NCBI RefSeq assembly: GCF_037042905.1
Contig: NC_087245.1
Coordinates: 26,104,001 to 26,168,000, forward strand
Direction of reading: 5' to 3'
Origin: Lytechinus pictus
Lineage: Eukaryota
DNA: 64,000 bases
The first letter of the stretch is position 1. Each line of letters starts with the position of its first letter. The notes under the pieces are model-generated. The model did not search any database. It was not told the origin of the DNA and saw nothing but the letters and a program-made list of their open reading frames with translations. The position numbers and the translations under genes were made by a program. This document shows positions 8,101-56,100 of the stretch, in pieces.

Positions 8101-11100
8101 CCCCTGCTACATGTATCTGTCTTATTTCCGTATTTCCGACTTTTCCTGTTTTCTGTCTATTAAAAAAAATTGGAAAGTCCTCCTTTTTTCCCCTCTCTCT
8201 CTCAATTGCGATGCATGTCGATCGACCGAGTGAGAGATATTTGCTATTATACAGTATATAGTTTATAAACGCGCGCACTACCCACTACGTTCATTGAGTT
8301 ATGCTTTTATCAAAGCTTTCCGATTAGAATTTTCGATATCCTGGCCAATCAATACGAGCGACAAGTTCCGAACGCACGCACATAGACAAGCGCAAAGCAG
8401 CGGCACAAATCGCGATATATATGATTGGTAAATACGTCTGTAAGGATGACAACGTCATCCAAGATGGCAACTTACGATGACTAACAAAAGGATCGAGGAT
8501 GACTGTGTTTTGAACATCATTTGAGAGGACTTAGCGGTAACTGCGGTCTAAGGTACGATGATTCTGAATTTTATATATTTTCTCGTAAATTTGGATGTAA
8601 TTATTTCTTTATAATGTGACATTTTGTGTACAAAAAAAAACATCTGAAAATCGGGTTTCCGCCGAATGTTAGATCTAACGTTACTGCTGATAGGTTGTCT
8701 TTACATATGGGCCAACAACTCTTCAGTCTATGTATTGGTGAGTGGAGCCAACGCGGTTTAGTGGAACAACCAAAATACAGAGACTGAAGCTTTTGGTCTA
8801 GCATTCTAGGAGCAACACACAACTACCGTCAGTTTTTCAAACCTTGACTTCAAAGTCATTGATCACAACAAGATAAGAAGCCACTTGGAAAAACCACACC
8901 CTCAAACAAACAAGGGGGTCATGCCCCAATTCACTGTTCTTGGACACTGTCCCTGCCCGCGATAAATTTCAGTGTTTTTTTAGGACACCTAGTGGCATCA
9001 CTGATATGTACATGCTCACTTGGGTGGTCATTTTATTGGATTATGTTCGGGTTCATTTTGAGAATGTTACCACAACTGGCATTTATCTTTAAACTTGACT
9101 CTGAATTTGAAGAAGTAGATGGATAAAAGCATGTTATTCTCTGTCAAACTGACTGATACTTAGATATACTTTTGTTGTAGCTTTTACCTGTCTGCCTGAT
9201 CACCAGCAAAGTGCAAGTGGTCATTCCTTTATTCTTCATCAAACTGACCAATACTTTGATACACTTTTCTTACAGCTTCTACGTGTCCACCTGACCATCA
9301 CCAATGTGCCAATGGTCAGTGCATTCATAAGTCTTGGGTCTGTGACAGGGATAATGATTGTGGAGATAACAGTGATGAGAATGAAACTCTACACCATTGT
9401 TGTAAGTATGCAACTATTATTTTCAGAACTCAGGGTTGTAATTATTAAATATTCCCCATATCAACTAATATTTAAACATACATTTAGGTGAATGTTTTAT
9501 ATCAGTGTTTGTGCCGAATTCTGTTCAATTTATATCAAATCAGCAGAAGGGTTTATATTAAACTCTTTAAAAAAGTAAAACAGTAGCATTAACATGTATT
9601 CATGTAAATGAGCATAAATGCATACATGTAGAAGTGTGTTTTTGTTATAAATAAATTTATATTATTTCATTATTCGTATTTCATGTATTGAATTACATGT
9701 TTATGAAGATTTGTAGATTTCTATTTCTAATTAATCATAATGAAAAGATGTTATATTTAAATTGAATCAATTAATGCAAACTATTATTCTTCTTTATTGA
9801 ATTTTGTTACTGGTATATAGTAAGATACAAAGTTTTGTAGTCAGAAGATGAAATACAATGATATGAACCCATTTTATATTTTGCATTTTTTAGCAAACCA
9901 TAACTGTACCGGTGATATGTTCCGCTGCACCAACCAACGCCGATGTATATCTAGATCGTGGGTTTGCGATGGTGAAGATGATTGCGGAGATGGTCAGGAT
10001 GAAGAGGGTTGCCGTAAGCTTACACCACACTTTTTCATTTTGGCCCTGATTTTACAAAGAAGCATGATTGATCTGATCACACACAACTTGGGAAGCGAGT
10101 AATATCAATGTCCAGAATGCATTTCTTGCTCATGGTGTTTTCTAACTTATACTCATGCTTGCATCATTTGCCTTGACAATTCGGGCGAGTGTTTTCTTCA
10201 ACATTTGTCATCTGCTAGTGTGTCAGATCTGACATTTTTCTGTGATTTTGATTTGCTGAGAGGCATTGTTACTATGATAGCTGTCAGATAAAACAGGACT
10301 TGTCGGATATAACATTCTGCAAGTCCTTTCATGAAACGCTCACCTGTATGCCCCTCCTTGTTTCCAAACGGATGTTCTGTACATTTTCCAGATGGAGAAT
10401 TATGACATTGATAGATTTCCATCGTTGCAATTGATCAGATCAATCACAGCTGCTCGTGAAACCAGTTACTGATGTAAGGGGATCGTAAGGTTTGAATAAA
10501 AATAGGTCTAACTATGCTATTAATGAAACAACCCATTAAAGGCCCATTGGTGTTTTCTTTTTTTCTGAATAAGGTATGAGCACAAGTGTAATGATTATAT
10601 AAATAGAAAATGCATTTGATGATTAAGTTTAGGTACAGTTTAATAATCACTGAAGTTGATTTACAGAAAAATCAAGGCGGCATAGTTACAGGGGATTTTA
10701 TTTCAAACAAAGTCATGGAAATATTAGTTTTTTCGTATCCACTAAAATGAAGCATGGTGAATCATTGTGGTTTGATGCTTAGCAGACATGGTTATGATAT
10801 TCCTTTGTCTCTGTTGTTATATAGATATAAATCTATGTAGAGATGGTGAGTTCTTTTGTGCCAACGGCCGGTGTATTCAGAGGTCCTGGGCTTGTGATCA
10901 CGATGACGATTGTGGAGACGGGTCAGACGAGCCTGAAGATGAATGTGGTATGTTATTATACTTATTATAATATCCATGTATCTTATTCTAAGATTGTTAT
11001 CACTGGTGGGTCCAAACTGCATCATGTGCCACAGTGCGTTTCCGTCTATCGTCTCAGGATTTTGACTTGCTTCCAATTTCTTCTACCAAACCCTGTTATA

Positions 11101-23100: not shown

Positions 23101-26100
23101 TGCTTTCTTCATGTTCCAGTCTTAAAAATGCCACGTTCCGATGACTCAAATCTACATGTTTGATGAATGCAATTGAAAAGTTCACCGATATTAATGTGTT
23201 ATAAAAACAGTCACATTACATTCTCATTTCTTCATGATTCATGGACATTTATCAACAACATGATATTTAAAATACATTAACTGTTCACTCTTTGGCTTTA
23301 TTTAAATGTTACTTGTATTTCTAATAAAGGTGGAAGTACTCCCTGATGTCATATTTTTCTACCAAAAATAATAAGAGTTAACTATTGTTGGGTAAAAAAA
23401 TCCCTCCAAAATTCATGAGATGTTCATATTTAAATGTTTAATTTGATCACTTGCAAAAAGCTTTCTCTGCATGAGCCTTTATCCAAATTCTATATATTTT
23501 TTTCATTTTTTATTGTTTTTATCATTTTATATTTTTTTATATTTTCCATAATTCTAGATTTCATGTACTAATAGTGGTAAAATAAATTTTAAAACAATAT
23601 CTTATAAAACGGCAATTAATTCGTGGAAAATCGGTTACAACTGACATGATAAAGTCAAAACTGGCACACTATTTTCATATAGAATATGGATAAAGCATGG
23701 AAAGCTACCTGAAGCTGTGGTAATGGTGAATCCCATATCAGATACTTAAAGTACTTCTTGAAGGGCTGCTGTCAGCTGTATGTTGGTTCTGAGATGTCTT
23801 GTACTCACTGCACTAATACAGTTGCTCTGTACATCCCGTGCCTTTAACATGTTTAACACAACGAAAGAAAACAAGGCCAATTAGTTAACACATTTTCAGA
23901 GTTAAAGTTTATTTAAAAAAAAAAATACTTAAGAAAAAAAAACTATAAAAAAAAACAATTAAAACTATAATTTTTTTTATTTTCAAAAATATGTCTTTTC
24001 ATTTTTTTTTTAATATTAAATGATTTTGTGTAGAAGGTTAGCGAACCTCATGTAATGTAGCTCGACCAGATTGTAGAAAAAATAAGAAATACCCCCACAC
24101 CCGCCCCCAAAATATATTGTTATTTTTGAATAAATTTCTTTCTGTTTTCTAGTTATAATTTCGATATCATTTGCACAGCTTTGGTGAAGCTCATACCAAA
24201 TAGACCCCACCCCCTCCGAAAAAAACCAAATTTGAAATCAGAAGTCCGACAAATAAGAATTTGTTAGAAGAGGGGATTTGAAAAATGTCCATAATTAACC
24301 GATTTAAAAGGGTACTCCGAGCTGAAAATAATTTCATCAAATGTAAGCAAATGCTGCAAATTTCATCAAAATCTGATAACAACTAGATCTAAAAGGGTTT
24401 TTCATGCATTATAAAAACAGTTATATGCACGTCTTAATAAATATTCGTTAGATGGGCTGATGATGACACCCCACTTTAACTTTTCTTATAACAAAACATG
24501 AAATCATACTTATTTTATTTGGTCATACGTGTGTGAATGATATGTCACCTTTTTGCATTAATTAATATCTAGTCTTGGAGGGGGGGGGGGGGATAGAACA
24601 AACATGATTTCATGTAACAAGGTGAGACATCTTTGCATCAGTTTGTCAAGTAAATTCATAAAAACATGCATAGAACTGTTTCACCGAAATCCATATCTTT
24701 ATAAATTATTATAGCTCTTTTACTCCTTGTCCAATTTTGATTTTTTTTATATACATTTTTTACAAACTTGTTGCATGTGATAGATTTAACTTAAATGGTT
24801 ACAAGTATGTAACGAAGGCCTATCTAAGTACGTGCAGATCTAGATCTAGTTGATAGCCTAGGCATACATAAGTTAGATCTTAAAAAGGCCGTCAAAGTCC
24901 CGGACAAATACCGCGAATCGCTGCAGCAGTCGCATGTAATTTGACGTTTAAAGTCGTTCCTAAAAAAGCTCTCTCTCGATCGATCCACATAAACACGCAA
25001 CACAAAATTCACATTCACGTGTTTAGTTGCCATGTTCCTCGCATCGCAATTATCAATGAAATTAACAAAACAACTCAATCTGCAACATAATTTAACTTAC
25101 CTTCATGGATTTCAGCCAAGGGAATTAAATTCAATCAACATGTATCCGAACCCGCCACCAAATATATCGAGCCGATATCCACAGTTCTGAAAAATAAAAA
25201 TGCGCCTGACATTTTTTTTTATTTCCCGCGGGTTGTTTGTTTTGTTTTTCCTCGCGACGCGCGCCAGACAAAAGTTTGATGACACGCGTATTTAAATGAC
25301 GTCCTAGCGCATTTATTGTCTCTCACCAATAGTCTGGTTTTTGCGCGACGCCACACATATATAATCATTGGCTGATTCAGTGTTCCTTCATTACATTTTC
25401 ATAATGTCAATTCATTCTGAAGTGTTATAAATCTTTCTAATTTGGCAAGTGGCAACATCGTATGTCCATGTTGAGATAATATGATCTTTACGAGATCATT
25501 ATGGGAGATAACTTTCAAATTGTTTGAAATTGACTTCTGATATGTGGCTTTGAACATGCTATCCTCTGAAGACTTATACGAATGTTACGTAATAGAATTC
25601 GTAAATTATACAAATAGTATGAAGTATAATTAGAATTCTATTAGTAATAATGAAGTATAAGTCGAGGAGGATCCCACCCTGCATCAAAACAATTTTATTC
25701 CCTCCCGATTATACAGAAGTCAATTTTGAGATGCAGACCTTATTTTGTGGGAATACAGCGCCATCTATCTAGAAATAATCTATTCCGATGCACATTGTTA
25801 TTATTATTATCCCCGACTTAAGCACGAGCTGCCATTTAGCGCTCAGTGCAATCAAGGAGTTGATCCTGTCGGGTACCCATTCACCTCAACTGGGTTGAGT
25901 GCAGCACATGGTGGGTATATTTATTGGAGAAGGAAAACACATCATACCTGGAATTCGAACCCACGTCCGTCTGATTGAAAGACGAGAGTCGTAACCACTA
26001 GACCACGGCGCCCCATTAAAACACATACAACAAATCTATACGAACCAAATGATTATTTGGTGTGTACATCTTGAAAAATTACTTAAGTGGATTGGAAAGC

Positions 26101-29100
26101 AATCCTGTTTTTAGTTGTTTACATACAAGATCTTTTTGTTTTGTATGACCTTAGCCGTCTTTGAAAAGATGGTTCCTATTCATTGGTAAGGGCCTTTTAT
26201 ACAGAACTGGCCCTGTGTGGAATTTTGATTGCTTTGAATTGCATTGTGTGAATTTCACTGCCTAACACCTGGGAAATGCATCAGCATTCCCATTTCCCAG
26301 GTGTTAGGCAGTGAAATTCACACAATGGGATTCAAAGCAATCAAAATTCCACACAGGACCAGTTCTCTATAAAAGGCCTTAACCAATGAATAGGAACCAT
26401 CTTTTCAAAGACGGCTAAGATCATACAAAAACACAAAGATCTTGTAAAGAACTAAAAACAGGATTGCTTTCCAATCCACTTAAGTAATTTTTCAAGATGT
26501 ACACACCAAATAATCATTTTGTTTGTACAAATTTGTTGTATGTGTTTGAATGGGGCGCCGTGGTCTAGTGGTTACGACTCTCGTCTTTCAATCAGACGGA
26601 CATGGGTTCAAATTCCAGGCATGATATGTTTTCCTTCTGCAATAAATATGCCCACCATGTGCTGCACTCAACCCAGGTGAGGAGAATGGGTACCGACAGG
26701 ATCAACTCCTTGATTGCACTGAGCGCTAAGAGGCAGCTCGTGCTTAAGTCGGGGATAATAATACTAACAATGTGCCTCGGAATAGATTATTTCTAGATAG
26801 ATGGCGCTATATTCCCACAAAATAAGTTCTGCATTTCAAAATTGACTTCTGTATAATCGGGAGGGAATAAAATTGTTTTGATGCAGTCATGCAGGGTGGG
26901 ATCCTCCTCGACTTATACTTCATTATTACTAATAGAATTCTAATTATACTTCATACTATTTGTATAATTTACGAATTCTATTACGTAACATTCGTATAAG
27001 TCTTCAGAGGATAGCATGTTCAAAGCCACATATCAGAAGTCAATTTCAAACAATTTGAAAGTTATCTCCCCTAATGATCTCATAAAGATCATATTACCTC
27101 AACGTGGTCATACGATGTTGCCACTTGCCAAACTAGAAATATTTATAACACTTCAGAATGAATTGACATTATGAAAATGTAATTAAGGAACACTGAATCA
27201 GCCAATGATTATATTTATATAATTATTAATAAATTGTTTCTCAATGAAGGCGAGGAAATTAATCAGTGAAATATTCCTCATCGATTCATCTTGCAAATGA
27301 TCTCCGATCAATCAAGTACATATCATACTTCTATATAATCCATTGATATAAATGTGAAATATTTTTAAATAATTTTTATATCATTTTAAGGTTTTCTACA
27401 TCAGCAGTAGAGGCGAAAATGGCCTCACTGGAAGAGCCATATATAATAATCGACGTTTAAGATAAGAATAACTAATGTTGGAAGATGCATCGTACTATAT
27501 AAGGATGAAAATAATATCTTGCTTCAGATATCAAAAGTCAAGATATTTCTCTATGATCAAATCAAAAGTTTAGTGGTGAAGGAGGTAGTTAATTATTGAT
27601 GAAACGCGGAACAATTACTGAGGCATCATGGTCAGATGGTATAAAATGTAAAAACTAATTCAGTTTTTGATCTGAGACAAGGTTACTAAATATTTTTAGG
27701 GGGTTCCAATGGGTGAATACTAGACAGTAATCTTTGTCATGTTTGTGCACCTTTAACCTAAGAAGAGTAGTTTAGAAAAAGCAATCAACAAAGAAGAATT
27801 CATAATTGAAGAGAACAAAGTAGTGATGTTCAAATACTTTTCTCATCGTACAAAATAACTTTCATGACAACTCTTGAAAGTGAAATTTGGATGGTTCATT
27901 CAGCGTTTGAGCACGCTGGACGTAATTGCTGTCAGCAGAGAAGAGCAGAATTATTGACGTCAAAATAAGAAGATATAATTTATGATTGCCCCAAAAAGAT
28001 TAACATTCAACAATTTGGTACAATGAAATTGAATCAAACTTCCTTGTAATTTGGTGTGCCAAGTATAAGGATATTCTCCCGAATTGGAAGTCCATAAAAG
28101 GCTGTAATGAATTTAGATGTAAGAATACTTGAAAAGAAAAGCTTCCTGAAAGATTTATAAACTTGATAACCATGGTTTAGATTAAATGAAATTTCATGTT
28201 TTCAAATTTTGTTCGACTAATGAATTTTATCATTACAATTGATAAAGAGTTATATTGCTGTCAAATACTGTAATTGAGACAAGGAGTTCAACAAGGATTT
28301 GTAGGCAGTAAATTGCCTTAATTCAATCATGGGTAGGTCCATGATTCAATAATACTTGATTATCAGCATAGTGGTGGTCGAGGGTGTAGTTTACAGCACA
28401 GCTTGCAAAATTGGAGTTTATTCTTCTAATCAAACTTACGTATCAATTTGAATAGTTAATGATATTGGTATTCATTTGTTTGTGAAAAACAAACGTGTTT
28501 TAAAAAAATTATTGTTCTAGGGCATAGGTGCCGTGCAAGAAATTGATTCCTAAACATTTATGTTGGTAGTTAGCAGGTCAGATACCTTACAAAACATGAT
28601 CGCGACACCTATAAACATGCTAACGATATTAGCAGTGATTGAGATCAATCATAGGTTGTGGAGTATCCGGTTTGAGTATAAGCATAATTGACTGGCACAA
28701 TAAGTAATGAATCTTAATGTTGATAATTGTCAGAAATTAATTTGAGATACAAGTCCAAAATGATGACACTTCGATCTCCAATTTTTTATACATGACATAA
28801 CATAGTCGTCTGATTGAATGATGTAAATAGTAAAAGAACCAACCAGGTTAGGTCCTAGATGTGCCAAGTCGGGTGTTTTTAACTTTCCCCTGTAAAACAG
28901 ACCTCGAGAGCTCGCTTCCAGAAATCCCAGTTTTATTGTTATTCATTTTTTTTTTTTTTTTTTTTTCAAACTATTTATCAACACAATTTCATTTTTTTTG
29001 TGTGTGTATTTCCCTCGTGATCGAGGAGTTAGTAATGAAAAAACTCAATTTCAGCGATACAAATGTACAAATCAAAGCAGCATCCTCTAGGGATCATAAT

Positions 29101-32100
29101 GGCTTATACAATATTTTATATCAGATGACTGATTGTTAACATTCATGAAAAGTTCTCTTGGGAATCCATGTATTATATAAAGTTACTTTAAATATAGTTA
29201 AGTCTTCTTGGTAGCATATTGTATAATTTTGCATGGCACAACGTTGATGGTTCATGGTTGATAGTCTTGTACAAGATGAGTACAGGGTGGAAGAAATTTC
29301 AACTTTGATTAAACAATGGATCTCTGTCCAGTGTTTTTACCAATACCAAAATTGTCGGAGTGCATGTCTGCATACATTCTAAACTTTTGAAAGGTTTAAA
29401 GGTTACTTGATCCAACTTGTTGTACACTTCGGGAATTTGGAATACTCTTAGTATCAACGGCTTGCGTTGGAAAGGATAATTAGGTGCTTTGTCAAGTTAG
29501 AAATCCGATCTGTTTAAATCTTCCTTGTTCAATCTTTTTAATTAAAATCTTCTTTGTTCAATGAATAGATAACAAGAATACATGTACATGTATATAGGTC
29601 CATGGTCTGACAAATCTTCAATGTAGGTTGTCAAGGACAACATGAATGAATGGGAAGGTCTATCAGCAAAATAATGTTCAGGCTTGGGCATGTAGCCTAT
29701 TTACAAAGTCTGGTGAAAATGTACTAGCTACCTCTTTTAATATAAGAATATAGTAATGAGCTATTCATTTAGGCGCCTTGCACGGATGAACTACTAGTTG
29801 GAACAATTTTGCGTGTATTATATATTGTTGTCTGGTAAACCTCAGACAATGAGATTTGCATCTTGGCAAATAAAATTTATTTCAACATGAAGTTCCTTCC
29901 AGATCCATAATCATTTAATGAAGCATTTTTTATCATGCTTTTTTCCTTTGAGGAATGTAAAGCTTCATATTACAAGCAACAAATGGATGATAGTTGAATT
30001 TCGTGACAAAACTTGGCTTTTCCCAGCTTAAAAGCAATTCAAATGACTATGAATTTGCCACTAACCAATCGGGTTATGCGAATATGTAAAATGGCACAGT
30101 AGTAAGTCTATGCATTATCCACGCGAGTTGTGAGATATCTAGCGATAATATCGCTGTTGTGAAGCTCTTGGTACAACTGTTTAATTTGTTTAAAATTTAA
30201 CACAAGAGCATATCGATCATCGTTTTATAAGCAGTGTTGTGCAAAATGCAGCGTTGTGCAAAATGCCTTTTGTGTACAATGTACTCTAGGTTATAAAGAG
30301 AGGCCTGTGCCAGTCCATGTTATAGCGATGTCAGTTTATACTCCAAATCGATGCTTTTTAAACATGTTTAAACGAAAATGGTTCTTGTAAAAGATTCCTA
30401 TGAGGGATAATTCAAAATGTAGGCATAACAATTTTTATACATATAGATACACATGTTCATAATGTCCGGGAATGTCACCCATTATTATGATATGGCGAAA
30501 GATTCATGCCAATCTATGGCAAAGGAATGGTAGCATCTATAGAGTAAGAAACTCTCCATCTTTGGGATGGTGAAAACAAAATCGACTGTCAGAGCAGTAT
30601 TAACTAATACAAGTAAATCCAGTACACAGTTGGCCATGACCATCAGTATTATCGGTGCTCCGGTGTCGTATTGAATTCTTCTGTACACAATCCGATTGGA
30701 ATATAGGCGTATATACTGTAGTAATTACTCGACAACAATTTTAAGAAGGGTTAAATTAAATCCCTTGGTCCAGCACAGTTGCTGTTATTGGTTGGTATAC
30801 TAACCACACATTAGAACGAGTATTGTAGAAAATTTGGCAATGCCAAGTAAGAAAAAGTTGGAAGCAATTTTATTATTCGGATAAATTGAAGTCAAAATAA
30901 GGCTGTAATAAGGGTAAGGCTCGCAATCCAAATCAATGACATGGTTCGATGTCATATCAGCATACGGCTTAATTCGATAAACCAAAGAGTTTACAGAGTA
31001 AATCATTATAATGATGTGAAGGTGTGCTGAATCAGCGAAATTTCTAGAAGAAAAGATAGGGCAGCGCCCTAATGAAGAAACAGTGTAGGGCAGCCCCCTG
31101 ATGTAGAAAGGTATGGCTCACATACCAAAAATATGGGTGGAGGAGCCCTCCTGCCCAAGTCAGCATGACTTGCATGCCTTAAAATATCAGAGACTGCCAT
31201 GATAGCTGCCGCTTTTACTCAACTCCAGGCGGCTTTCCATGCCTGCTCCCCAACGGAGAGCAGGGCTGAAGGAGACCATAGGCTCATGTCTCCTCAATAC
31301 TCACCATGAAGATAAAGATGTGTAGTCACTGCCGTCACACTTGAAAAAGATGGTTCCTATTCATTGGTTAGGGCCTTTTATAGAGAACTGGTCCTGTGCG
31401 GAATTACATTTTTTAATAATATGAATTTTATTGGATTTTTTTTCTAGGTATTACATGATCTTGGTGTATTGAATCCTGATGGTATTGCTGTAGATTGGGC
31501 TGGAAGGAACCTGTATTGGTGTGATAAAGGGTTAAATGTCATTGAAGTATCAAGGCTTAATGGAAGCTATCGCAAGACATTGATCAAAGAGAACCTGGAT
31601 GAACCTAGAGCCATTGCTCTCGATATCATTAGAGGGTAAGTATGCATCATGTATTGTGCTGAAACGACGTCACAAACAACTCGTTTGGCATTTGATACCT
31701 TTCCGTATATCTCTATAGACTATTATGAAAAACATCCACAACCCAGTTTTAGCAAGGGGTTGGTCTAAGGGGTTCCATGACATTGCGACAATTGCTCCGA
31801 TGGAAAATCAGCAAGTTAAAGCCAAACATAAAATCTAACCTCCAAATACTGAATATGGTCATGATGATTTTGAAATGAACAAAAATAAAATTAATGATGT
31901 AACACTTCAACACTCTGCTATGTTTTAAGAGATATATCTCTAGTTATTATTGGTTATACTCATGCTGATGTTTATTTTTTTAATTAAAAAATATTTGTTT
32001 GTACTATTCTAAAATTGTATGCTTAGAATAATTTTCTGAAAGCCCTTTATTTGTTGAAGTTAAAAGTTGTAATATGCCTTGTTCTGTTTCTCTCTTAATA

Positions 32101-35100: not shown

Positions 35101-38100
35101 ATTCTGTATTATCAAGCACATCACTTTTATTCTATACCCAGTCCCACGTACAGCATTTTTTGTTTGTTTTTGTGAATGTAGGTCCATTCTATTGCACACC
35201 TGGTCAGTTTCAGTGTCAGAATGCATCTGAAGCTGATAATGAATGTATCAATCCTGCATTCATATGTGATGGTGAGAAGGACTGCAGAGATGGATCAGAT
35301 GAAATGCGCTGCTGTAAGTTGATATCACCTTCTGTTTTCTACCTCATAATCCTAATTGAAACTCTTAAATGATCAAACTACGACGTACATCCTTGCTGGT
35401 GTTATAGCTACATTGGTCAGGCCTAGCCAGCACTCATCATGATAAGCAATGTTTTGACCAACACAAATTTCAAATGAATTATTTTAAACACAACTACTTG
35501 GAAAGAAGAATTGATTTTCTTTCTCCCATCTTGTTTTATTTGCAAAATTTACAACAAGCACTTTTTTTTCTTATCAATGATTTGACAATGTCAGATAGCT
35601 ATGGTATTATGATTGCTCATTAGTTTGGCTTTAAGGCAACTATCACAGACTACAAACAACTTTGTATTACCATGAAGTAGTAACCACTAACACCATAAAC
35701 TGAATGATTATGACTTTGCAAAACTGTCCCAACACATTCAAAGATGAAGTCTGTTTGCCCCCTCCCCCTTCATGTCATATATGTTACACTCAAAGACACT
35801 CAATAACCTTATGTGAATGATGTTAATAATTTGATTGCTATTGCAGTTTTACCAGTACACTGGTTTACCTGCACTGGCATGTTCTTTTCTTGTTCATATG
35901 GAAATTCATATGCATATAAAGAATGGATGAGTGATTATTCTGTTGTATTTTTTTTTCTGTGTTTGTACATACAGTGAATCATACATGTCTGCAGAATCAG
36001 ATCAAATGTGAGAGAAGCAACATATGCATTCCCAAATCCTTCCAGTGTGATGGCATCAATCATTGTGAACATGGGGAAGATGAAGCTATGTGTGGTACGT
36101 ATTTACAGCTTGATTGTATCATACAGTATATACATAATTAAAGAGATTTTTAGTCATGTTATTAAGTTACAATTGTTCATCATTTGTTGACACTTAATGT
36201 TTTCTTGCTGTGTTGACATAGTAGGGCCCCCGGGGTAGGGCCAAAGCCGATTTATAGCAAGATAACATATCTCCATTAATAAATAGCTCTTTCAAGCTTC
36301 CCTAACACTTACATGTATCTGAAGCCTAATGTGATAGGTAATTGACTTTTACTTGGATAGTACTTCACATTGACGGAGCTGCCAAGTAGTACTGATTTTT
36401 GTCTCACCTGCATAGCAGAGTGAGACTATAGGCGCCGCTTTTCCGACGGCGACGGCGGCGGCGGCGGCGGCGGCGGCGACGGCGGCGTCAACACCAAATC
36501 TTAACCTGAGGTTAAGTTTTTGAAATGACAGCATAACTTAGAAAGTATATGGACCTAGTTCATGAAACTTGGCCATAAGGTTAATCAAGTATTACTGAAC
36601 ATCCTGTTTGAGTTTCATGTCACATGACCAAGGTCAAAGGTCATTTAGGGTCAATGAACTTAGACCATGTTGGGGGAATCAACATCAAAATCTTAACCTA
36701 AGGTTAAGTTTTTGAAATGTCATCATAACTTAGAAAATATATGGACCTAGTTCATGAAACTTATACATAAGGTTAATCAAGTATCACTGAACATCCTGCA
36801 TGAGTTTCACGTCACATGACCAAGGTCAAAGGTCATTTAGGGTCAATGAACTTTGGCCGAATTGGGGGTATCTGTTGAATTACCATCATAACTTTGAAAG
36901 TTTATGGATCTGATTCATGAAACTTGGACATAATAGTAATCAAGTATTACTGAACATCCTGTGCAAGTTTCAGGTCACATGATCAAGGTCAAAGGTCATT
37001 TAGGGTCAATGAACTTTGGCCAAATTGGGGTATATGTTGAATTACAGCCATAAATTTGAAAGTGTGTTGGTCTAGTTCATAAAACTTGGACATAAGAGTA
37101 ATCAAGTATCACTGAACATCCTGTGCGAGTTTCAGGTCACATGATCAAGGTCAAAGGTCATGTAAGGTCAAAGAACTTTGGCCACGGTGGGGGTATTTGT
37201 TGAATTGCCATCATATCTCTATAAGTGTATTGGTCTAGTTCATAAAACGTGGAAATACGAGTAACCAAGTATCACTGAACATCTTGTGCAAGTTATAGTA
37301 GTTTTCAAAATCAGCACTGCTGCTATATTGAATCGCGTGATGCAGGTGAGACAGCCAGAGGCATTTCACTTGTTAGTATTTAGTACTGAAAAATTAAAAG
37401 AATACTAATGATAATCGCTAGAGGGTATTCATTTGTCTCGCAATCTACTATGGTCAACAAGGAAATTCGTGATCACTCTCGCAAAAAGTGTTCACTAGCT
37501 TTCTAGGAAATTTGTGATCACTCTAGCAAAAAGTGCTCACTAGCTTACAAGTTCACGAGCTTTCGAGTGCCGCTGCAACTCTTTATCAAGTGACGAAAAT
37601 ACTAATGATTTCAGGCAAAATACTGATTTTTAAAGTTTCAGTTTTATGTGTTGTCCGATGGTATTTTCTTGGAAATGCCGATTTCCTTAGCAAAGTACTG
37701 AATTTTAGCTATAAAATACTCGGATGTTCTTGTTTAGGTTGGCAGCTATGCGCTGACATGGTTGTCCAGGCTAGTACAATGCATTTGAACTTACATAAAC
37801 AACAAGTTGAATCGATTTTGTCTTATTATTTAGATCAAGTTCAGTGCCGAGATGATCAGTTTCGGTGTAATGCAACAGGTCGTTGCATACCTGAAGTATG
37901 GCGTTGTGATGGTGAAGATGATTGTGAGGACCGATCGGATGAGTTGGGGACATGCCGTGAGTTCTGACACGTTATTGCTATTGAACCTGTATATAATGAC
38001 CATCAATGTTAGACATGAATTGTGTTTACTGAAATCAAACTTAATGACAACCCATCTTGGCCAAGAATAGAGTATTACGATTATAATCATACCTTCATAA

Positions 38101-47100: not shown

Positions 47101-50100
47101 ATTACAGTGAGAAGAAAGTCTTCATCCTATCGGGCTACAATACGTCGGGGTATCGTCTATATCAAATACCACTTCATAATGATGCAGCAAGGAAGAAGAG
47201 AGACACGGAAGAAGAAGATCCAATTGTTGAGGTATTTTCCAAGACTGCTTCTGTCAGTAATTATCTGTTCCTGTCCTGAAAGAGACAGGGTAGCATTGCA
47301 AACATTAGAAAGAAAAAAAATTATAAAAATTTTGATGAAATATGTAATACATGTATATGGATGGCTCTATATATAAGAAGAAAAAAACATGAAGGAGACA
47401 GAAAGATGGAGGATGTTGGAAAGGTTACAATAAGCAACATTGAGAATATTTCCTCACCATGGAAAGAAAAATCTATACCTGGACAGCCTCTCTAGACGTT
47501 TCAACTCCCCACCCCCAAGAAAAGAAGGATTTATAATTATGCATGTCTAAAAGTTTTCATACTGCTTATCCACAGAAAATACATTTCTTCATCGTGTGAT
47601 ATGGATTTTATTTTGTTTATTTTTGTAGCTGTTTGAGTTGGACCAACCAGAGGGCATTGCCGTTGACTGGATCAGTGACATGATATACTGGACGGATAGC
47701 TCGGTTCATTCATTAGAGGTGGCCAATCTGGATGGTTCACTAAGAAAAACATTGATATCAAATGCAAGAACACATCCACAGTCCATTGTTGTGCATCCAA
47801 AGAAAGGGTAAAGGTTTTTTCATCAACTCTTCTCTTGGGTGGAAGTAAGGGGTTTCAAAACTTTTTTTCAGGGTACCTTTTCACAGATGGTAATGTAGAT
47901 GCAAAGGTGTTTTTATTATAGACTTCGATGGACGATGAGCCTTTGTGCAATCTGTATTGGAACATGTTTCTACTTCAATCATTTTCCACCTAATTTCCTG
48001 TTTCTGATAAAATGTTCTCGCCATATCAATTACATAGCTACAAAATTTGCATGTTGCAGATTTACCACGAATGATGAAGCCAACGCCCCCCCTCCCCCAT
48101 CTCATTGACCCAAATTCACAATGTTGGCTTCACTTGTACTATTGTACAAAACCATGGACTATGCAGATTTTCTTGTAGTATAATGTCATTTGGCAAAAGC
48201 ATGCAATTATAATTGGACCTTTCTTACTGTATGTGATGAAATTGCATAATTATGTATACAAACTCTGCGTAGTCCTTGGGTTTTTTCCCATGGTACAATT
48301 GAAACTATCTTTGTGAATTAGGGTTATTTCTTCTTTACACAAGAAAAATGGGTAATCGGTTAGTGATGCTATTGCTGACTACAATCTTCCAGCCTTCTAC
48401 AAACAGAGTTAATCAGGCCATAAGAGATCCAAGCATAGTCTGGAGTCATTTTCACAACATAGGGAAAGATGTTTAGTGGAATAATTCTCAACAAATGTGC
48501 CACATTCTATTTTGATTTCTTTAAAAATTACTTCCTCTTGCAGTGTGCTGTTCTTCAGTAACTGGGGAAAGAGACCCGCTATTAACAAGGCACACATGGA
48601 CGGGACTCACCTAGAAACGATAGTAGAGGAGAATCTAGCCCAGCCGACAAGCATTGCTATTGATTATGTAAGCGAGAGACTGTATTGGGCGGACAGCAAG
48701 ATGAGACTGATTGAGAGCTCTGATTTGGATGGCGGAGACCGAGTTCCAGTGGTTACGTTCCCTCATAGTGAGTAGTATGCAAATAGTACACATCATTGAG
48801 GACGTTAGAAAGAATTACAATCGTGAGTTATCTTTGGAAGAGTTCTAGCATGCCTGAGGCATTACAGAGGGCATTTGGACCATTTCAAAGCTAATTAAGA
48901 AGTATGGGTAACTATTCGAATGCCGATGAAAAATGATGTGTATTGTATGTTTTGTGAGATATTAATGTGTTATTTGATAGACCATCCTCATCTGTTAAAC
49001 CATGACTAGTCATAGGCAATTGTCATGGAGGCGCGGTAGCTCAGTCGGTAGAGCGGGGGATTCGTATTGCGGTGACCCTGGTTCGATTCCCACTTGGTGC
49101 GCTAGTGCCCTTTGGTAAGGCATTAATCCTCAGCAGCACCAGGTCCTTCGGAGAGGACCTTAAGCCGTCGGTCCTCTGGTTGCTTGCTTACAAGCATTCA
49201 TGCTTTCTTAGCAATCAGGTAAAAAATCACCACCACCTATGTTAGCTATAATAAATGACTAGTGACATGATAACTTTCAGTCAATCATTTAGTAATGATC
49301 CATATCACCACTTTATAATGATTTTACACTTTATACTTTTCTCCTTTTTGTTAAACAATTTTTGTGTCTGCAATGTCCACAATGTTTTACAGACGTAATA
49401 TGATAATAAGCTAGAATTTGATGGCTAGGTTAATGATATGAATGTATAGATATCTTTCTGACATATTAAGTGCTACCTAAAAGTAGATGATTATTGATGT
49501 TAGTCATTCAACATTCTGAATATTGTATGAGTGTGTTCTTTTGTGCTTAAGACATATTAACGAGAAGTTGTTGTGTTGTTTAAACAGTTAAAGTATTATT
49601 GTTTGTTGCTTTCAGCTGGTGGTTCCCCTTTCTCCATTGATATCTTTGAGGATCGTATCTACGGCTCCACCAAGAATCCTTACCAACTCTTCAGAGTAGG
49701 AAAGTTTGGTCATCAGAGTACTGATAGAAAGAGACTCACTTATCTTACTCAACAAAGACCAAAAACATCCATGGTAAAAATTGTCCATCAACAAAAACAG
49801 GACACAGGTATTGTATTACTTCAGAAAATTATAAATCTACTTTCAAAGAACCCAGTTGACACAGTCACATCTGAATGTTGATTTAGTAATTACAATCAAG
49901 AATAAAGATATCAGTATAAAAAAAAAGAAACTACTAAAGAAAATAACTAGGTTTTTATATACCCAATATGTGGATTAGTCTTTCATTATCTTATTTGATT
50001 CATGTTAAACAAATTTGAGAATGCAAATCACAATAATATGACTTACATGTAATTTCTGGAAAAAATAATGTGACAAGTAATTTCTGTTGTTACTGGAGTT

Positions 50101-53100
50101 TCTGAACTTTCATGAACCAAGTAGACAAAGTGGAAGTTTAGATCATCCGGCCATTGTAGTAAATGACAGTAACCCCTAGGGAATTTATACACCAAGTAAT
50201 GGTTGGACGAAATGGTGATTAGACCTGATTGAGAGTAGACCATGTGGGTTTAGCTATGATGGTGTTAGACAGGTCCCTGGTAGTGCCTTGGTTCCCAGAT
50301 GCTGGAGTTACAATTGACAGTTGCATTGGTCTCCATTACTTAGACCCTTTTCTCATTACTGCCCTAAAACTGGTTTACTGAAAACTAGCTTAACATGTAA
50401 TGGGAACGGTCAAAGTGGTTTTGGAAGCGATCTTCCAAACCAGTTCGAAAAACCACCTTGCGATGTAGTTTTCAATATCCATTTGTCTCGTTAAACTGGT
50501 TTTTATTAGTGTAAGTGAGAACACAACCGTTCTTCTTGAAGTGATCTTTGCACATTTTGAGCATGCTACTCCACACACAGCGTGTAGAATGTCTACGCTG
50601 TGAATTCGAATTTTGCTCCCATAGCAACAAGATCACTTTACGTGAAGTGAGTTTGAAAACCACTTTCGGGTGATCAAATGGGAATGCCAGCAAAGAGATC
50701 TTCTAAACTCTATTTCCTGAACCAGTTTCCAGTAAACTAGTATTAGAAAGTACAATGAGGACGATGTCTAATAGACAGTATGAAGAGATGTTCTGTTTAT
50801 GAACCAAATATTCATATGATTAAGTTTGAAAAAGTTATTAGAAGAAGTGGAAAGTTAGTCCATCTGCGGGTTATATTGAATGACAATAGGCCGAAGTGAT
50901 GGTTGGACCAATAGGTAATTAGACCAAGTGATAGTAGACCAAGTGGTTTTAGCCATGATAGTGTAGACAACCTGAGAATGAAATCATTTGCTTGTAAACC
51001 AAGTGAATACAAAGCCAATGGAACAGGGTGAGGAAATGACTCTGGTGATGTATGTATTTTTCAGGTATCGTCAATCCGTGTGATAACCAGACATACTCTT
51101 CCAATCAGCTATGTCTGCTAACTCCATTTGGTCCCTCGTCTGTTTGTAAGGAAGGCTATGAGCATGATGGGATATCAGGTTGCATACCAGTACAAGGTAA
51201 AACTATATGAAACAAATTTTTAATTCATGTCTTTGTATGCCTCTGCCCAACTATGGCGGTTGCTGGAGGGATCATGTTTTGGGGTCTTCCGTTGGTCTCG
51301 ATCTCGCATTGACTAAAGAGATGTTTGTTGAATCAACTTCAAACTTGGTCATAGTTCGTCCCGACTCGATCGCTAATCCAGTGTAAATCCCCTCATCTCC
51401 CCTCCTGAGATGAGATGAGGGGATTGACACTGGGGATCGAGTCAAGAGGCCCTCTATGTTAGCTTTGGGAAAGAAAACTTCTATACATCAACATCCAATC
51501 TGGAAAGTATGCATGATTTGATATAGGGACGATGATCTGATTAGTTTTTTGAGTATCAAGGTACATGTATGAGGTCACACTTTTCACTGTCGAATGGTTA
51601 CAGAAAATGGGGGGGGGGATGATTCAAGATGCAGTCGAGAATCTATTGAATTTAATTTCCTATGAATTGTCTTTCAACAATCTATATTCTCATGTTATAC
51701 ATGTATATGGGATAAAAACATCTAAAAGCTGAAGTTCATGTATATATTTTTTTCACCCTAGATAACTCTCCTTGTGCCAGCCATGTTTGTGCTAATAATG
51801 GAAACTGTGTTGAAGTCAATGGAAGAGCAAAGTGCAGGTATGATGTTTTATTTAGCCATGAACTCCTTCCTGTATGATCCGTTTGTTTGGTGGGGATGGG
51901 GGTGGAATATTGATTGAAATCGGTAAAGTTTATTTGTTTATTCCCTTTTGTAAGTCTTCTTTCTATTCTTTGTATCTGAAAAAAAAATGGGTGAGAGACA
52001 GCTTTCACCTTTCATGTAATCTACATGTAAAGTTGAACTTAACCATAAGTCTCTAGAAATGTAATAAATCAATTAATCCAAAACTGTATTTTGTTCAGGG
52101 ATAATTAATTGTTAGACTTATTGTGTGTGTTTTTTTTTTTTTTAGATGTCAAGTTCCATACAGTGGGGAGCATTGTGAGCGTAATCGGTGCCATTCCCGT
52201 TGTCAAAATAATGGAACGTGTACGTATGAATCTCCTGGAATGTTACACTGTGCTTGTACTCCGCGATGGAAAGGGCCATTTTGCACGGAGGACAGGTGCC
52301 GTACGTACTGCAATGGTCGTGGCCAATGCTTTGAGAATGGTAACACATTAGCATGTCGGTAAGTATCTTGTAGCTTAATTTCACTCATTCAGTCTAAATT
52401 CAAATGAAGCAGTCTTATATAAATCAAGAATCCAAACTAACACTACAGCGAAGATAAGATCTGCATGACTTCAATGTTTTGATATGTTATGATATGATGC
52501 ACTCATCATCATTTGATCTTCACAGTAAGTTTAGATTCAAAATTTATAAATCTATATAATTATATAACTCATCAAATATAATTATATAACTCAATCAACT
52601 TCCTTGTTCACTATTCCATTCATTATTTTACCTAGGCCAATTTTCATTGTCATGTATAATAGGATGAGAGAATGATGATAAATAATGGCATTTGCAAATC
52701 AAATTTATTTTTGTGTGCTCGTCTTGTCAAGAATATTATCCAGAAACAATAATTGTTCCATAGAGTGGTGATCGATAGAATGATCATATCTGATTCATGT
52801 TTGATTTCATTCTTGAACAGATGCCATCAACGATAGAGTGGTGATCAATGCAATGATCATACATGTATCTGTGATTCATATTTAATTTTATTCTTGAACA
52901 GATGTCATCAACGATGGAATGGTGGTCAGTGCAATGATCATATCTGTGATTCATATTTGATTTCATTCTTTAACAGATGTCATCAACCATAGAGTGGTGA
53001 TCAATATAATGATCGCAATGAGTCATATTTGTTTTCATTCTTGAACAGATTTCATCAACCATGGAGTGGTGATCAGGGCAATGATCATATCTGTGATTCG

Positions 53101-56100
53101 TAGTTGATTTCATTCTTTTCATTCATGAACAGATGCCATCAACTGTGGAATGGTGATCAATGCAGTGATCATATCTGCGATTCATTTTTTATTTCATTCT
53201 TTTCATTTATGAACAGATGCCATCAACTGTGACGTGGTGATCACATACATGTATATATGATTTATATTTGATATTAGTATTGATTTCATGAACAGATGTC
53301 ATCAACCATGGAAGGATTATCAATGCAATGATCATATCTGTGATTCATATTTAATTTCATTCTTATCATTCATGAACAGATGTCATCAACCATGGAGTGG
53401 TGATCAATGCAATGATCACATCTGTGACTCATATTGCCGTAATGGAGGAACATGTTCAATAGATGATAATGGTAACCCGCAGTGCTTATGTCCTAAAGAA
53501 TTCACTGGTACCCAGTGCGATGGTGACGACTGTCATGAATTCTGTTCTCCGGGCAGCAAGTGTCAACAAATAGGTCAGAGACAACTCTTTTCCTTCTCTT
53601 CATGTATTTGATCATGCTATTTCTGTATATGAAAATCAGAATTATTTATTTCTAAAGCACTTAAATGTGAATTGCAATTTGAGAGATCTAAGCCATTTGG
53701 CAGTTGTTTCTGCTCATTAACAAACATTGAATGCAACGCCACTTTGGAATTAAGCAAGCACAATCTGATATAGCACCATATGTTATATGTGTGAGAATAT
53801 TTTTGTGATGTATTGAACGAATGACACAATGTTGTTGCTTCAATATTTAGTATTCATTAATTTGATTGTTTGTCAGAAATACATAATTTTATAACAATTT
53901 GGAAGGATATTTCTAACAGGCATGTAATGCACTCTGTAATAATTGTGTATTATCTTTTATAGTTTAGTAATCAAAAGAAGCAAGTCATTATTATAAGTTG
54001 CGTACATTCTGCACCCTAGCCTAGTTAACCCCCTGGTTTGATTCCTTACCAATTCTTTGTTAATTTACCAGGTACGACTATTCAGTGTATTTGTTCTTCG
54101 GCTCGTTATACTGGTCAGCGATGTGAAGAGGATAGATGTCATGATTGCAGTAAACTCAATCAATCATGCGCTGTCTTGACCGATAGTGTTGAATGCAGGT
54201 ATAGTATATATTTCGGTTTATTTGCAATTTGTCTAATGCCAATTCGTCCAATTGCCAACTCTCTACAATAGTTTGGTCTACCATCAGTTTGTCCACTCAC
54301 CACATGGTCTACTTCCATTTAGTCTAATGCTATTCCGTTTGATAACCAGTTGGTCCAATAACCATTTAGTCCATATACCATTTGGTCTAATTGGACTAAG
54401 TGTTAAATTGTGCAAAATGACTGAAAATGAAATGGATATTAGACCAAACGGTTATGAGACGAAATGGTCAAAGACAAAATGGTGATTAGACGAAGTGATG
54501 ATTGGACCAAATGGTTAATGGACGAAATGGTCGTTAGACGAAATGTTGAAGGATGAAATGGCATGAGACTAAATGAAAGTAGACCATGTGGTGAGTGGAC
54601 GAGTTGGCTATTTACTCTTATTTCCTTATTCAAATATTAGGTAAAGTAAATTAAAATAAATTAAAAGTGGTTTGACAAATGAGAATATGTGGTCAAAATG
54701 ATAATGAAGAAACAGATCTGCAGTTTAAGATATGACAAACATGCACAGCACTGAAAATTCATCAAAATACATGTACATGTTAGATGTAAAATAAGAAATT
54801 TATGGCACTTAAAAATTTTAAAAATTTATGACACAATTTATGACACTAAATTTTTCACAAAACAATCATTTAATATGTACATCTTGGCTTGTATGGAAAA
54901 TGAGGGAACAAATAATGTCACACACTCATTATTTTCTTTGCATTTGACATAAGATATTTCAATATTGTATGGGTTTTTGTGATAAAGAAGCTTTCCCCTA
55001 ATTCACTAAATAACTGAATACTGATTACCCAACTTGTTCCATGAAGAATCAAGCTACCAAGTTTTACATTATTGGAGGAAACTGGTGATATTTGATATTT
55101 CCATTAATAAAATAAAAAAGATATTAATGTAGTGAGTGAGTTAAATATTTGCCACCCTAATTCGCATACTGCGAATGATGTGTCTATCACTTTTTTGTGA
55201 AAATAAGTAAAAATTGAAAATATCTTTACTTTATTTTCGTTTATATCTGACTTTGATGAATATGAAGTACCGGTAATGTGTTGGTTTGATTTTTTTTGTA
55301 TTCATTTATTCAAATAACTCTTTGTTTCGGAAGGGGGGGATTTACTTGACCTTTAACTCTATGCTCAGCTTTTGTAATGATGTGAGCTGTTTTTTATTAG
55401 AGATGTTATATTTGTTGTTAACAGAGATCATGGTGATGGGCATCCAAGCACAAACTCACAGTCATCACAAGGTAAGGCTTTTGTTTTGAGAAGAGGATAA
55501 ATGACAGGTGAAGTGCTGCCAATGGCAGATCCAGCGGAGTTGAATACAATAAAATAATCAGGGGTCTGTGATGTTTTTACACAATAGTCGGCCCATCAAA
55601 CTGTTGTGACTAATCTGGTTTTATCTGCCCCATAGCAAACTTACATGTATGTGTTGCTGATTGTAATTACGATGATGATGATGATGATGATGATGATAAT
55701 GATGAAGAATAAGGATGATGATGATGATGAAGATGAAGATGATTGTGGTGATGATAACTGAGATGATGATTGCGATGATGGTGATGATGAAGAACATGAT
55801 GATGATGAAAAACATGATGATTGCAATGATAATGATGGTGATTGTGATGTAATGATCTCCATGATCATGATGGTGATGAATTTGATAAATGTCAATGTTG
55901 GTAATAATTTCTTTCTATTACCTTACCTCATCAAACAATATGTAACTTGTAAGTGCAAGTACTAGGTGCTATTTTCATGTAACAGGTTATGGCATACCAA
56001 CTTTTACAGATACTGCTGTACAATGAAGGAATTGATACCATATTCACTTTACTTGTGAGAGTAATGATATTCATTTTTATTTTTCTCTTTATAGTGGCAG

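Follow-up and report, generated by a model that had tools for sequence, protein, structure and literature searches.

A probable 'mirage' minisatellite of repeated splice acceptors ahead of an EGF exon in Lytechinus pictus LRP1

Minisatellites called 'mirages' are known from amphioxus, and Canestro et al. 2002 is reportedly an earlier source on them. In published accounts they occur in the globins BflGb6 and BflGb9, in Adh3, in troponin C and in PGBD5 (Ebner et al. 2010, PMC3087553; PMC3902484), and splicing across the acceptor mirage of BflGb6 is described as normal (PMC3087553). A 37-bp VNTR in intron 7 of human F7 is reported as a case in which position beats sequence in splice-site choice (Borensztajn et al. 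2006, PMC1557585). Human segmental duplications, too, are described as carrying internal tandem repeats where exon and intron meet (De Grassi and Ciccarelli 2009, PMC2812944).

An array of the amphioxus kind is described here from Lytechinus pictus LRP1, to which the RefSeq protein XP_063955134.1 maps exactly. The window is the whole stretch analysed, 64,000 nt of contig NC_087245.1. The features shared with mirages are: i) tandem units; ii) a span across an intron/exon boundary; iii) intronic copies that keep their AG; and iv) splicing at the authentic site, as seen at low depth with NMD not blocked. With a probability of roughly 0.7, the array is a mirage minisatellite with seven upstream acceptors that go unused in the sampled RNA, exon definition being the likely cause and neutral decay the likely fate of the copies.

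The repeat array and its host gene

The features, in window coordinates, are as follows.

9134..9323 (+): second mirage, one 95-nt decoy copy (AG ends 9180, 76% alike) ahead of the LDLa exon at 9276; TRF, alignment
52146..52358 (+): upstream LRP1 EGF exon, donor after 52358 (GTAAGT); exact protein map, RNA depth and joint
52359..53379 (+): GT..AG intron of 1021 nt that hosts the array; RNA joint in 15+17+8 reads and contig X3, protein map
52758..52820 (+): unit 0, acceptor-less exon bases 11-56, then part of the intron end and decoy acceptor 1 (AG ends 52820)
52821..52901 (+): unit 1 of 81 nt, ending in decoy acceptor 2; its exon copy has TAG as codon 5 plus a 6-nt insertion
52902..52976 (+): unit 2, 75 nt, exon copy with a gained donor-like site after 52924; decoy acceptor 3
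52977..53048 (+): unit 3 of 72 nt, ending in decoy acceptor 4; TAG within its exon copy
53049..53132 (+): unit 4 of 84 nt, ending in decoy acceptor 5; TAG as codon 18 of its exon copy
53133..53216 (+): unit 5, 84 nt; decoy acceptor 6
53217..53295 (+): unit 6, 79 nt, most decayed (78% to exon), TGA and frameshift; decoy acceptor 7
53296..53379 (+): unit 7, 84 nt, potential in-frame stop-free extension, RNA use not seen; used acceptor at its end
53380..53573 (+): real EGF exon, 194 nt, duplicated part the first 56 nt (53380-53435); XP_063955134.1 map, RNA

The eight units (63-84 nt each, of minisatellite size) run head to tail, a full unit being made up of 19-28 nt of intron end and the opening 56 nt of the 53380 exon. 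The boundary spanned was fixed by RNA and the RefSeq protein map, and the exon is colinear with two other urchin LRP1 proteins (Strongylocentrotus-labelled and Diadema). TRF and sequence inspection place the G of the eight acceptors at 52820, 52901, 52976, 53048, 53132, 53216, 53295 and 53379, with AG-to-AG distances of 81, 75, 72, 84, 84, 79 and 84 nt. The first-pass annotation had claimed eight tandem splice acceptors at these spacings, and they are present at 52820-53379; the count is right but includes the real acceptor, leaving seven decoys. AG is kept in all seven full decoys. The GAACAG given as part of the unit holds in general, but copy 3 reads TAACAG. The repeat does start at 52758, as had been proposed, but its first stretch (52758-52801, exon bases 11-56) is a partial ninth unit without an acceptor of its own or any retained AG, 73 nt ahead of the next unit. 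No further acceptor was found upstream of 52758 (alignment P=0.70).

The similarity is far above chance (local alignment score 96 vs a maximum of 39 in 200 shuffles), and by this score the array boundary ranked first among the 84 exon boundaries tested. Neither an exact-pattern search of metagenome contigs (0 matches) nor a look-alike search of other genomes brought up an orthologous intron. The chance that the array is an assembly artefact is close to nil. RNA depth in the intron is 0, which such an artefact would fit, but pairwise unit identity is 0.71-0.91, the 9-29% divergence comes with distinct indels and no identical pairs, unlike mis-assembly of one sequence, and a further mirage, more decayed, lies in the same gene. 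Within the window, exon edges were not significantly enriched in long tandem repeats (2/5, P=0.14 in a rough estimate).

Two other classes were rejected. Tandem exon duplication, as cassette or mutually exclusive exons, does not describe an array that copies 56 of 194 nt, has no native donor and carries stops in most copies. A recursive splice site is defined by an AG followed directly by GT, and AG is followed by AT at all eight acceptors.

Acceptor use in RNA and the reading frame

The RNA sample consisted of three raw-read runs and one contig set under the same species label (4 of 23 listed runs). The three runs come from one study, with about 6% of each read; the libraries were rRNA-depleted, NMD was not blocked, and junctions were listed from 3 reads upward. 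Junction reads were counted from donor 52358, as the first-pass annotation had suggested, and 40 of the 40 listed lead to 53380 (15, 17 and 8 in the three runs). Contig X3 carries the same joint. No other joint from this donor is among those listed, which leaves the remaining acceptors below about 7%. Among 227 aligned reads, depth over the decoys is 0 in 11 bins from 52372 to 53295, and the reads show no inserted letters at the 52358-53380 joint. The bin 53296-53379 has depths of 0.19, 0.25 and 0.11, which is what a single shared base would give in about 16, 21 and 9 reads; five junction reads with a 14-nt overhang match copies 3, 7 and 8 equally. The bypassing of seven decoys by the spliceosome, as first proposed, agrees with these reads. 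The accompanying suggestion of variant or NMD-targeted isoforms is unsupported at this depth, at which stop-bearing forms could hide via NMD. With a single joint from donor 52358 and the bound given above (NMD not blocked), the array was not classed as an alternative 3' splice site or as NMD-coupled splicing.

The penultimate acceptor (53295/53296) would add 84 nt, in frame and without a stop, and thus the 28 residues that had been predicted. The six acceptors upstream of it meet in-frame stops after 4, 29, 4, 17, 32 and 4 codons, respectively, the penultimate decoy alone being in frame. Since the extended form is not an NMD target it would have been visible in the reads, where it is found in 0 of ~46 (95% upper bound 6-7%). 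An LRP1 isoform confined to certain tissues or stages, its membrane-proximal EGF stalk longer by 28 residues, is highly improbable, even though the frame is open and unit 7 keeps 89% identity with the start of the exon. The insertion is absent from contig X3, from the RefSeq protein and from both orthologues (Strongylocentrotus-labelled and Diadema), unit 7 has second-position changes, the context after one of its three cysteines is replaced by intron-derived residues, and an in-frame unit length is a one-in-three chance event. Selection for 3n spacing was likewise rejected: the spacing descends from a 75/84-nt unit and gives no selection signal, as multiples of three make up 3 of the 6 changes in length (P=0.32) and the second LRP1 mirage measures 95 nt.

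The donor-like site in unit 2 scores 9.2, compared with 5.1-11.1 for 26 true donors, and could close a frameshifting 23-nt pseudo-exon (52902-52924). The decoys, or this pseudo-exon, might be used at a regulated rate with NMD destroying the products, so that the array tunes the LRP1 level. Early stops from 6 of 7 decoys, an AG in every decoy with a score at least that of the used site, and the strong donor-like site would suit this arrangement, whose RNAs NMD could conceal. It is nevertheless decidedly unlikely: depth is 0 over the decoys in rRNA-depleted libraries and over the pseudo-exon, and the joint carries no insertion from either. The penultimate decoy, immune to NMD by its in-frame product, is likewise unused, so that NMD cannot explain its silence, and decoy splice signals show no excess conservation. 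A broader conjecture is that this sea urchin's mirage arrays serve as nurseries of new regulatory exons, unit 2 holding a poison micro-exon, allele-specific copy number tuning LRP1 via NMD-coupled splicing in unsampled tissues or stages, and a splicing-linked bias promoting duplication at exon edges; this is a long shot.

Choice of acceptor and decay of the copies

Site strength was rejected as the deciding feature. In an acceptor matrix trained on 42 other acceptors of LRP1 alone, with 17 of the 42 boundaries inferred, the used site scores -0.1 and the decoys 1.9-7.1, making the used site the weakest of the eight. It is not singled out by branch-like motifs or by predicted RNA accessibility (0.58 unpaired vs 0.29-0.58 for the decoys). 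The last copy alone is followed by the 138 nt of unduplicated exon that precede donor 53573, giving a 194-nt exon; splicing to a decoy would require an exon of 278-753 nt, a size that none of the 42 exons mapped in the window (47-260 nt) reaches. Because the weakest-scoring site is the one used, the acceptor is likely chosen by position, i.e. by exon definition.

The last acceptor of a neutral mirage might also win by its own sequence, through a branch point, enhancers in the unduplicated exon or silencers in the decoys. Among the eight, YTAAY lies at -26 in the used site alone (copy 2 has it at -17), decoy 7 has the poorest pyrimidine count (10/20) and an extra AG close upstream at 53277, and the unduplicated 138 nt are richer in GC than the units (0.46 vs 0.30-0.37) and contain 4 GAR triplets. 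For human acceptors an upstream preference is reported to persist, merely reduced under exon definition, the exon-centred proximity rule being clear for donors (PMC9225289), so that distance alone may not suffice. Choice by sequence is still unlikely, as the used site scores lowest of the eight. At true LRP1 acceptors YTAAY shows no enrichment (5/42 vs 99/885, P=0.80), and YTRAY, which is enriched (17/42 vs 187/885, P=0.006), also precedes decoys 1, 5 and 7.

The decoys likely decay neutrally, without protein constraint. Distinct changes in the copies number 3, 15 and 14 at codon positions 1, 2 and 3, and stops lie inside four exon copies and unit 0. The decoy AGs show no excess conservation (44% of columns are invariant; P is about 0.19 for two sites), nor does the longest invariant run in the unit alignment stand out (P=0.09). 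The unit tree is star-like (support 0.47-0.80), with the shortest branch leading to the used copy (0.016 vs 0.069-0.349, at weak node support). At exon bases 40 and 49, T is common to most decoys, against C in the reference exon.

Under exon definition with neutral decay, an initial duplication of about 75-84 nt would have spanned the intron/exon boundary, and the first duplicate may then have expanded through slippage or unequal exchange. The downstream donor would pair with the nearest acceptor, leaving seven decoys silent. Arrays that disturb LRP1 splicing would likely be purged, so that the one seen would be a tolerated survivor.

Comparison with known systems

No published report of echinoderm mirages was found in the literature searched, whose coverage left out most subscription journals, and the LRP1 array adds to the case for them. 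Taken alone the array is of small importance, since the kind is named in amphioxus and has a human donor-side counterpart. Its worth lies in the natural test of acceptor choice that it offers, in which eight near-identical acceptors compete and the weakest-scoring wins.

The human segmental-duplication repeats also lie in tandem at exon-intron boundaries, but as described they often give alternative transcripts or new introns, neither of which is seen in LRP1. The F7 VNTR, in its published account, is likewise a boundary-spanning minisatellite with several pseudo splice sites, of which only the site adjoining the full exon is used; it lies on the donor side, with identical pseudo-sites, known polymorphism and experimental proof, whereas the LRP1 array lies on the acceptor side, has diverged copies and is known from sequence and RNA reads. 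The array matches the amphioxus mirages, a kind already described. On the published descriptions, both repeat the intron 3' end with the 5' part of the next exon head to tail before the real exon, have copies of comparable likeness (71-91% in LRP1, 81-100% reported for BflGb6), keep AG in many copies, have an atypical outermost unit and give normally spliced mRNA (for LRP1, in the reads sampled). They differ in host (echinoderm vs cephalochordate) and in unit length (72-84 nt vs 150-160 reported for BflGb6 and 10-72 for Adh3). Length polymorphism and somatic instability are reported for amphioxus. The lack of identical unit pairs in LRP1 may point to little recent homogenisation.

LRP1 and the copied exon boundary

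The window carries, on the + strand, the 3' part of a sea urchin LRP1 gene. One of two candidate proteins, the LRP1-like protein of Lytechinus pictus (XP_063955134.1), matches exon 53381-53572 at 100% and maps exactly to 27 exon pieces and 26 GT..AG introns (33349-57318). Upstream, 17 exons at 1284-33505 were placed using P0002, a full-length urchin LRP1 of 4582 aa whose label begins 'Str'; the refined chain is stop-free in one frame and matches P0002 residues about 2561-3334, a continuity suggesting that the RefSeq annotation, which starts at 33349, is probably truncated or split. The intron at 18669-31447 spans 12.8 kb; the gene's other introns are far shorter (308-3336 nt).

The repeat unit in intron 52359-53379 consists of the intron's final 19-28 nt and the initial 56 nt of the exon beginning at 53380. 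The eight acceptors end at 52820, 52901, 52976, 53048, 53132, 53216, 53295 and 53379, with spacings of 81, 75, 72, 84, 84, 79 and 84 nt. If splicing used the acceptor before 53296, the transcript would gain 84 in-frame nt with no stop; the six acceptors further upstream lead to in-frame stops after 4, 29, 4, 17, 32 and 4 codons. The first-pass annotation had described these acceptors, their spacings, the in-frame, stop-free penultimate site and the stops in several upstream copies correctly. Two further features belong to the same kind of structure, a mirage, i.e., a minisatellite copying an intron/exon boundary:

From 52758, + strand: partial ninth unit, beginning at exon base 11, without acceptor
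9134-9323, + strand: second acceptor mirage, one 95-nt unit, 76% alike, before the LDLa exon at 9276

Alignment finds no acceptor-like sequence upstream of the partial unit at 52758 (P=0.70). A short perfect inverted repeat with 6-nt arms (52744-52757) lies exactly at the array's 5' edge, at the point where the first unit lacks an acceptor.

The 84 exon boundaries were each aligned to their own introns and compared with shuffles. The array boundary (53380) scored 96 versus a shuffle maximum of 39, a second boundary, 9276, scored 66 versus 36, and the others scored 30 or less. At 9134-9323 the 95-nt unit duplicates the acceptor together with 48 nt from the start of the LDLa exon. Its decoy AG at 9179-9180 is intact and scores 5.2 versus 8.4 for the real acceptor; judged from sequence, use of decoy 9180 would frameshift. 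Since 95 nt is not a multiple of three, frame preservation is not a rule.

The window also holds an intronic tandem array at 36488-37294 (163/192-nt periods), unrelated to exon edges, and three interspersed elements, each about 245 nt long and alike at their ends (976-1220, 5092-5333 and 17388-17634), which resemble MITEs. By eye, 49028-49220 resembles a tRNA-derived SINE; ARAGORN found no tRNA there.

Acceptor use and choice

RNA was mapped over 51700-54219 in 84-nt bins in register with the last unit, using four of 23 listed runs: three raw stranded, rRNA-depleted runs (about 6% of each read; 58, 92 and 77 reads placed) and one contig set. Joints were listed from 3 reads upwards, and all but one of the loose-end rows were covered. 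The array had been suggested to produce variant or NMD-targeted isoforms; when junction reads from donor 52358 to each AG were counted, with NMD not blocked, the sole joint listed led to 53380 (15, 17 and 8 reads in the raw runs, plus the contig). The decoy region 52372-53295 had depth 0 in 11/11 bins. Bin 53296-53379 showed depths of 0.19, 0.25 and 0.11, by our own arithmetic equivalent to a single base from some 16, 21 and 9 reads, and this base is a G fitting either side of the joint. No inserted letters were listed at joints in the RNA examined, and an insertion at the 52358/53380 junction is absent from XP_063955134.1 and two orthologues (P0002 and the Diadema LRP1, P0003). With NMD active, 0 of 40-46 reads place the other acceptors below 6-7% at 95% confidence. 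Five reads with a 14-nt overhang in the RNA run X23 fit copies 3, 7 and 8 equally. Depth was zero in every intron over 51700-54219, and the reads inform on exons, not on pre-mRNA or array alleles; the RNA animals show 28 listed exonic differences from the reference. Because the in-frame decoy (53296) is silent too, NMD alone cannot account for decoy silence.

A position matrix built from the 42 other acceptors of the gene and checked by leave-one-out scored the used site at -0.1 and decoys 1-7, 5' to 3', at 1.9, 6.2, 7.1, 2.4, 2.2, 4.1 and 2.2. Among the true acceptors (median 8.2) 2/42 fell below the used site, and a 25-site matrix left the order unchanged. The used site scores lowest of the eight, and thus intrinsic strength does not explain the choice. 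It has a YTAAY motif at -26; YTAAY is not enriched at the gene's true acceptors (5/42 vs 99/885), and YTRAY, which is, occurs before decoys 1, 5 and 7 too. Predicted accessibility does not separate the used site from the decoys.

The distinguishing feature of the used acceptor is its position next to the full exon and donor 53573. The rest of the exon and this donor follow the last copy only, making an exon of 194 nt; an exon starting at a decoy would have to be 278-753 nt long, and the 42 exons in the window reach 260 nt at most. At 1021 and 498 nt, the introns on either side are both longer than the roughly 250 nt beyond which splicing in human tests shifts to exon definition (PMC9225289); the same paper reports that splice sites closest across the exon are favoured. 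In the human F7 gene, position prevails over identical pseudo-donors (PMC1557585). From these observations we infer a positional mechanism of acceptor choice. Against a purely positional rule counts the upstream bias of human acceptors, which persists and is only reduced by exon definition (PMC9225289).

Decay of the copies and latent sites

Identity to the real exon is 78-91% in the exon-derived parts, and stops occur in several copies. Distinct changes number 3, 15 and 14 at codon positions 1, 2 and 3; second positions are therefore altered as often as third ones. The branch of the used copy is the shortest (0.016 vs 0.069-0.349 for the others), on weak node support. Because 44% of 75 columns are invariant among the seven decoys, neither the intact decoy AGs (P about 0.19) nor a longest run of 7 invariant columns (P=0.09) is remarkable. 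Selection for spacings in multiples of three was considered and rejected: the spacings are not independent, being descended from a 75/84-nt unit, and 3/6 length changes are multiples of three (P=0.32). Exon base 49 is T in 7/8 exon-derived array pieces, and in the real exon the same base (53428) is a synonymous C/T polymorphism, with T in 11/16, 9/21 and 13/13 RNA reads; T appears to be the older state.

In unit 2, two A-to-G changes created a strong donor-like site after 52924, scoring 9.2 (true donors 5.1-11.1). With the acceptor to 52902 or 52821 it gives predicted frameshifting pseudo-exons of 23 or 104 nt, neither supported by a read in the RNA examined; unit 2 (52902-52930) may hold a latent 23-nt poison micro-exon. 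Another donor-like site (53438, score 6.2), its use unseen in the reads, lies three bases beyond the stretch of the real exon that the units copy.

Relation to lancelet mirages

Mirages were described in amphioxus by Ebner et al. 2010 (PMC3087553), and part of a paper on PGBD5 gives further lancelet cases (PMC3902484). Literature searching, with poor coverage of subscription journals, found no paper on echinoderm mirages; one search gave only the lancelet PGBD5 paper. Four of the six defining features of a mirage are seen in the LRP1 array, which is real and well explained as a tolerated mirage of this known kind.
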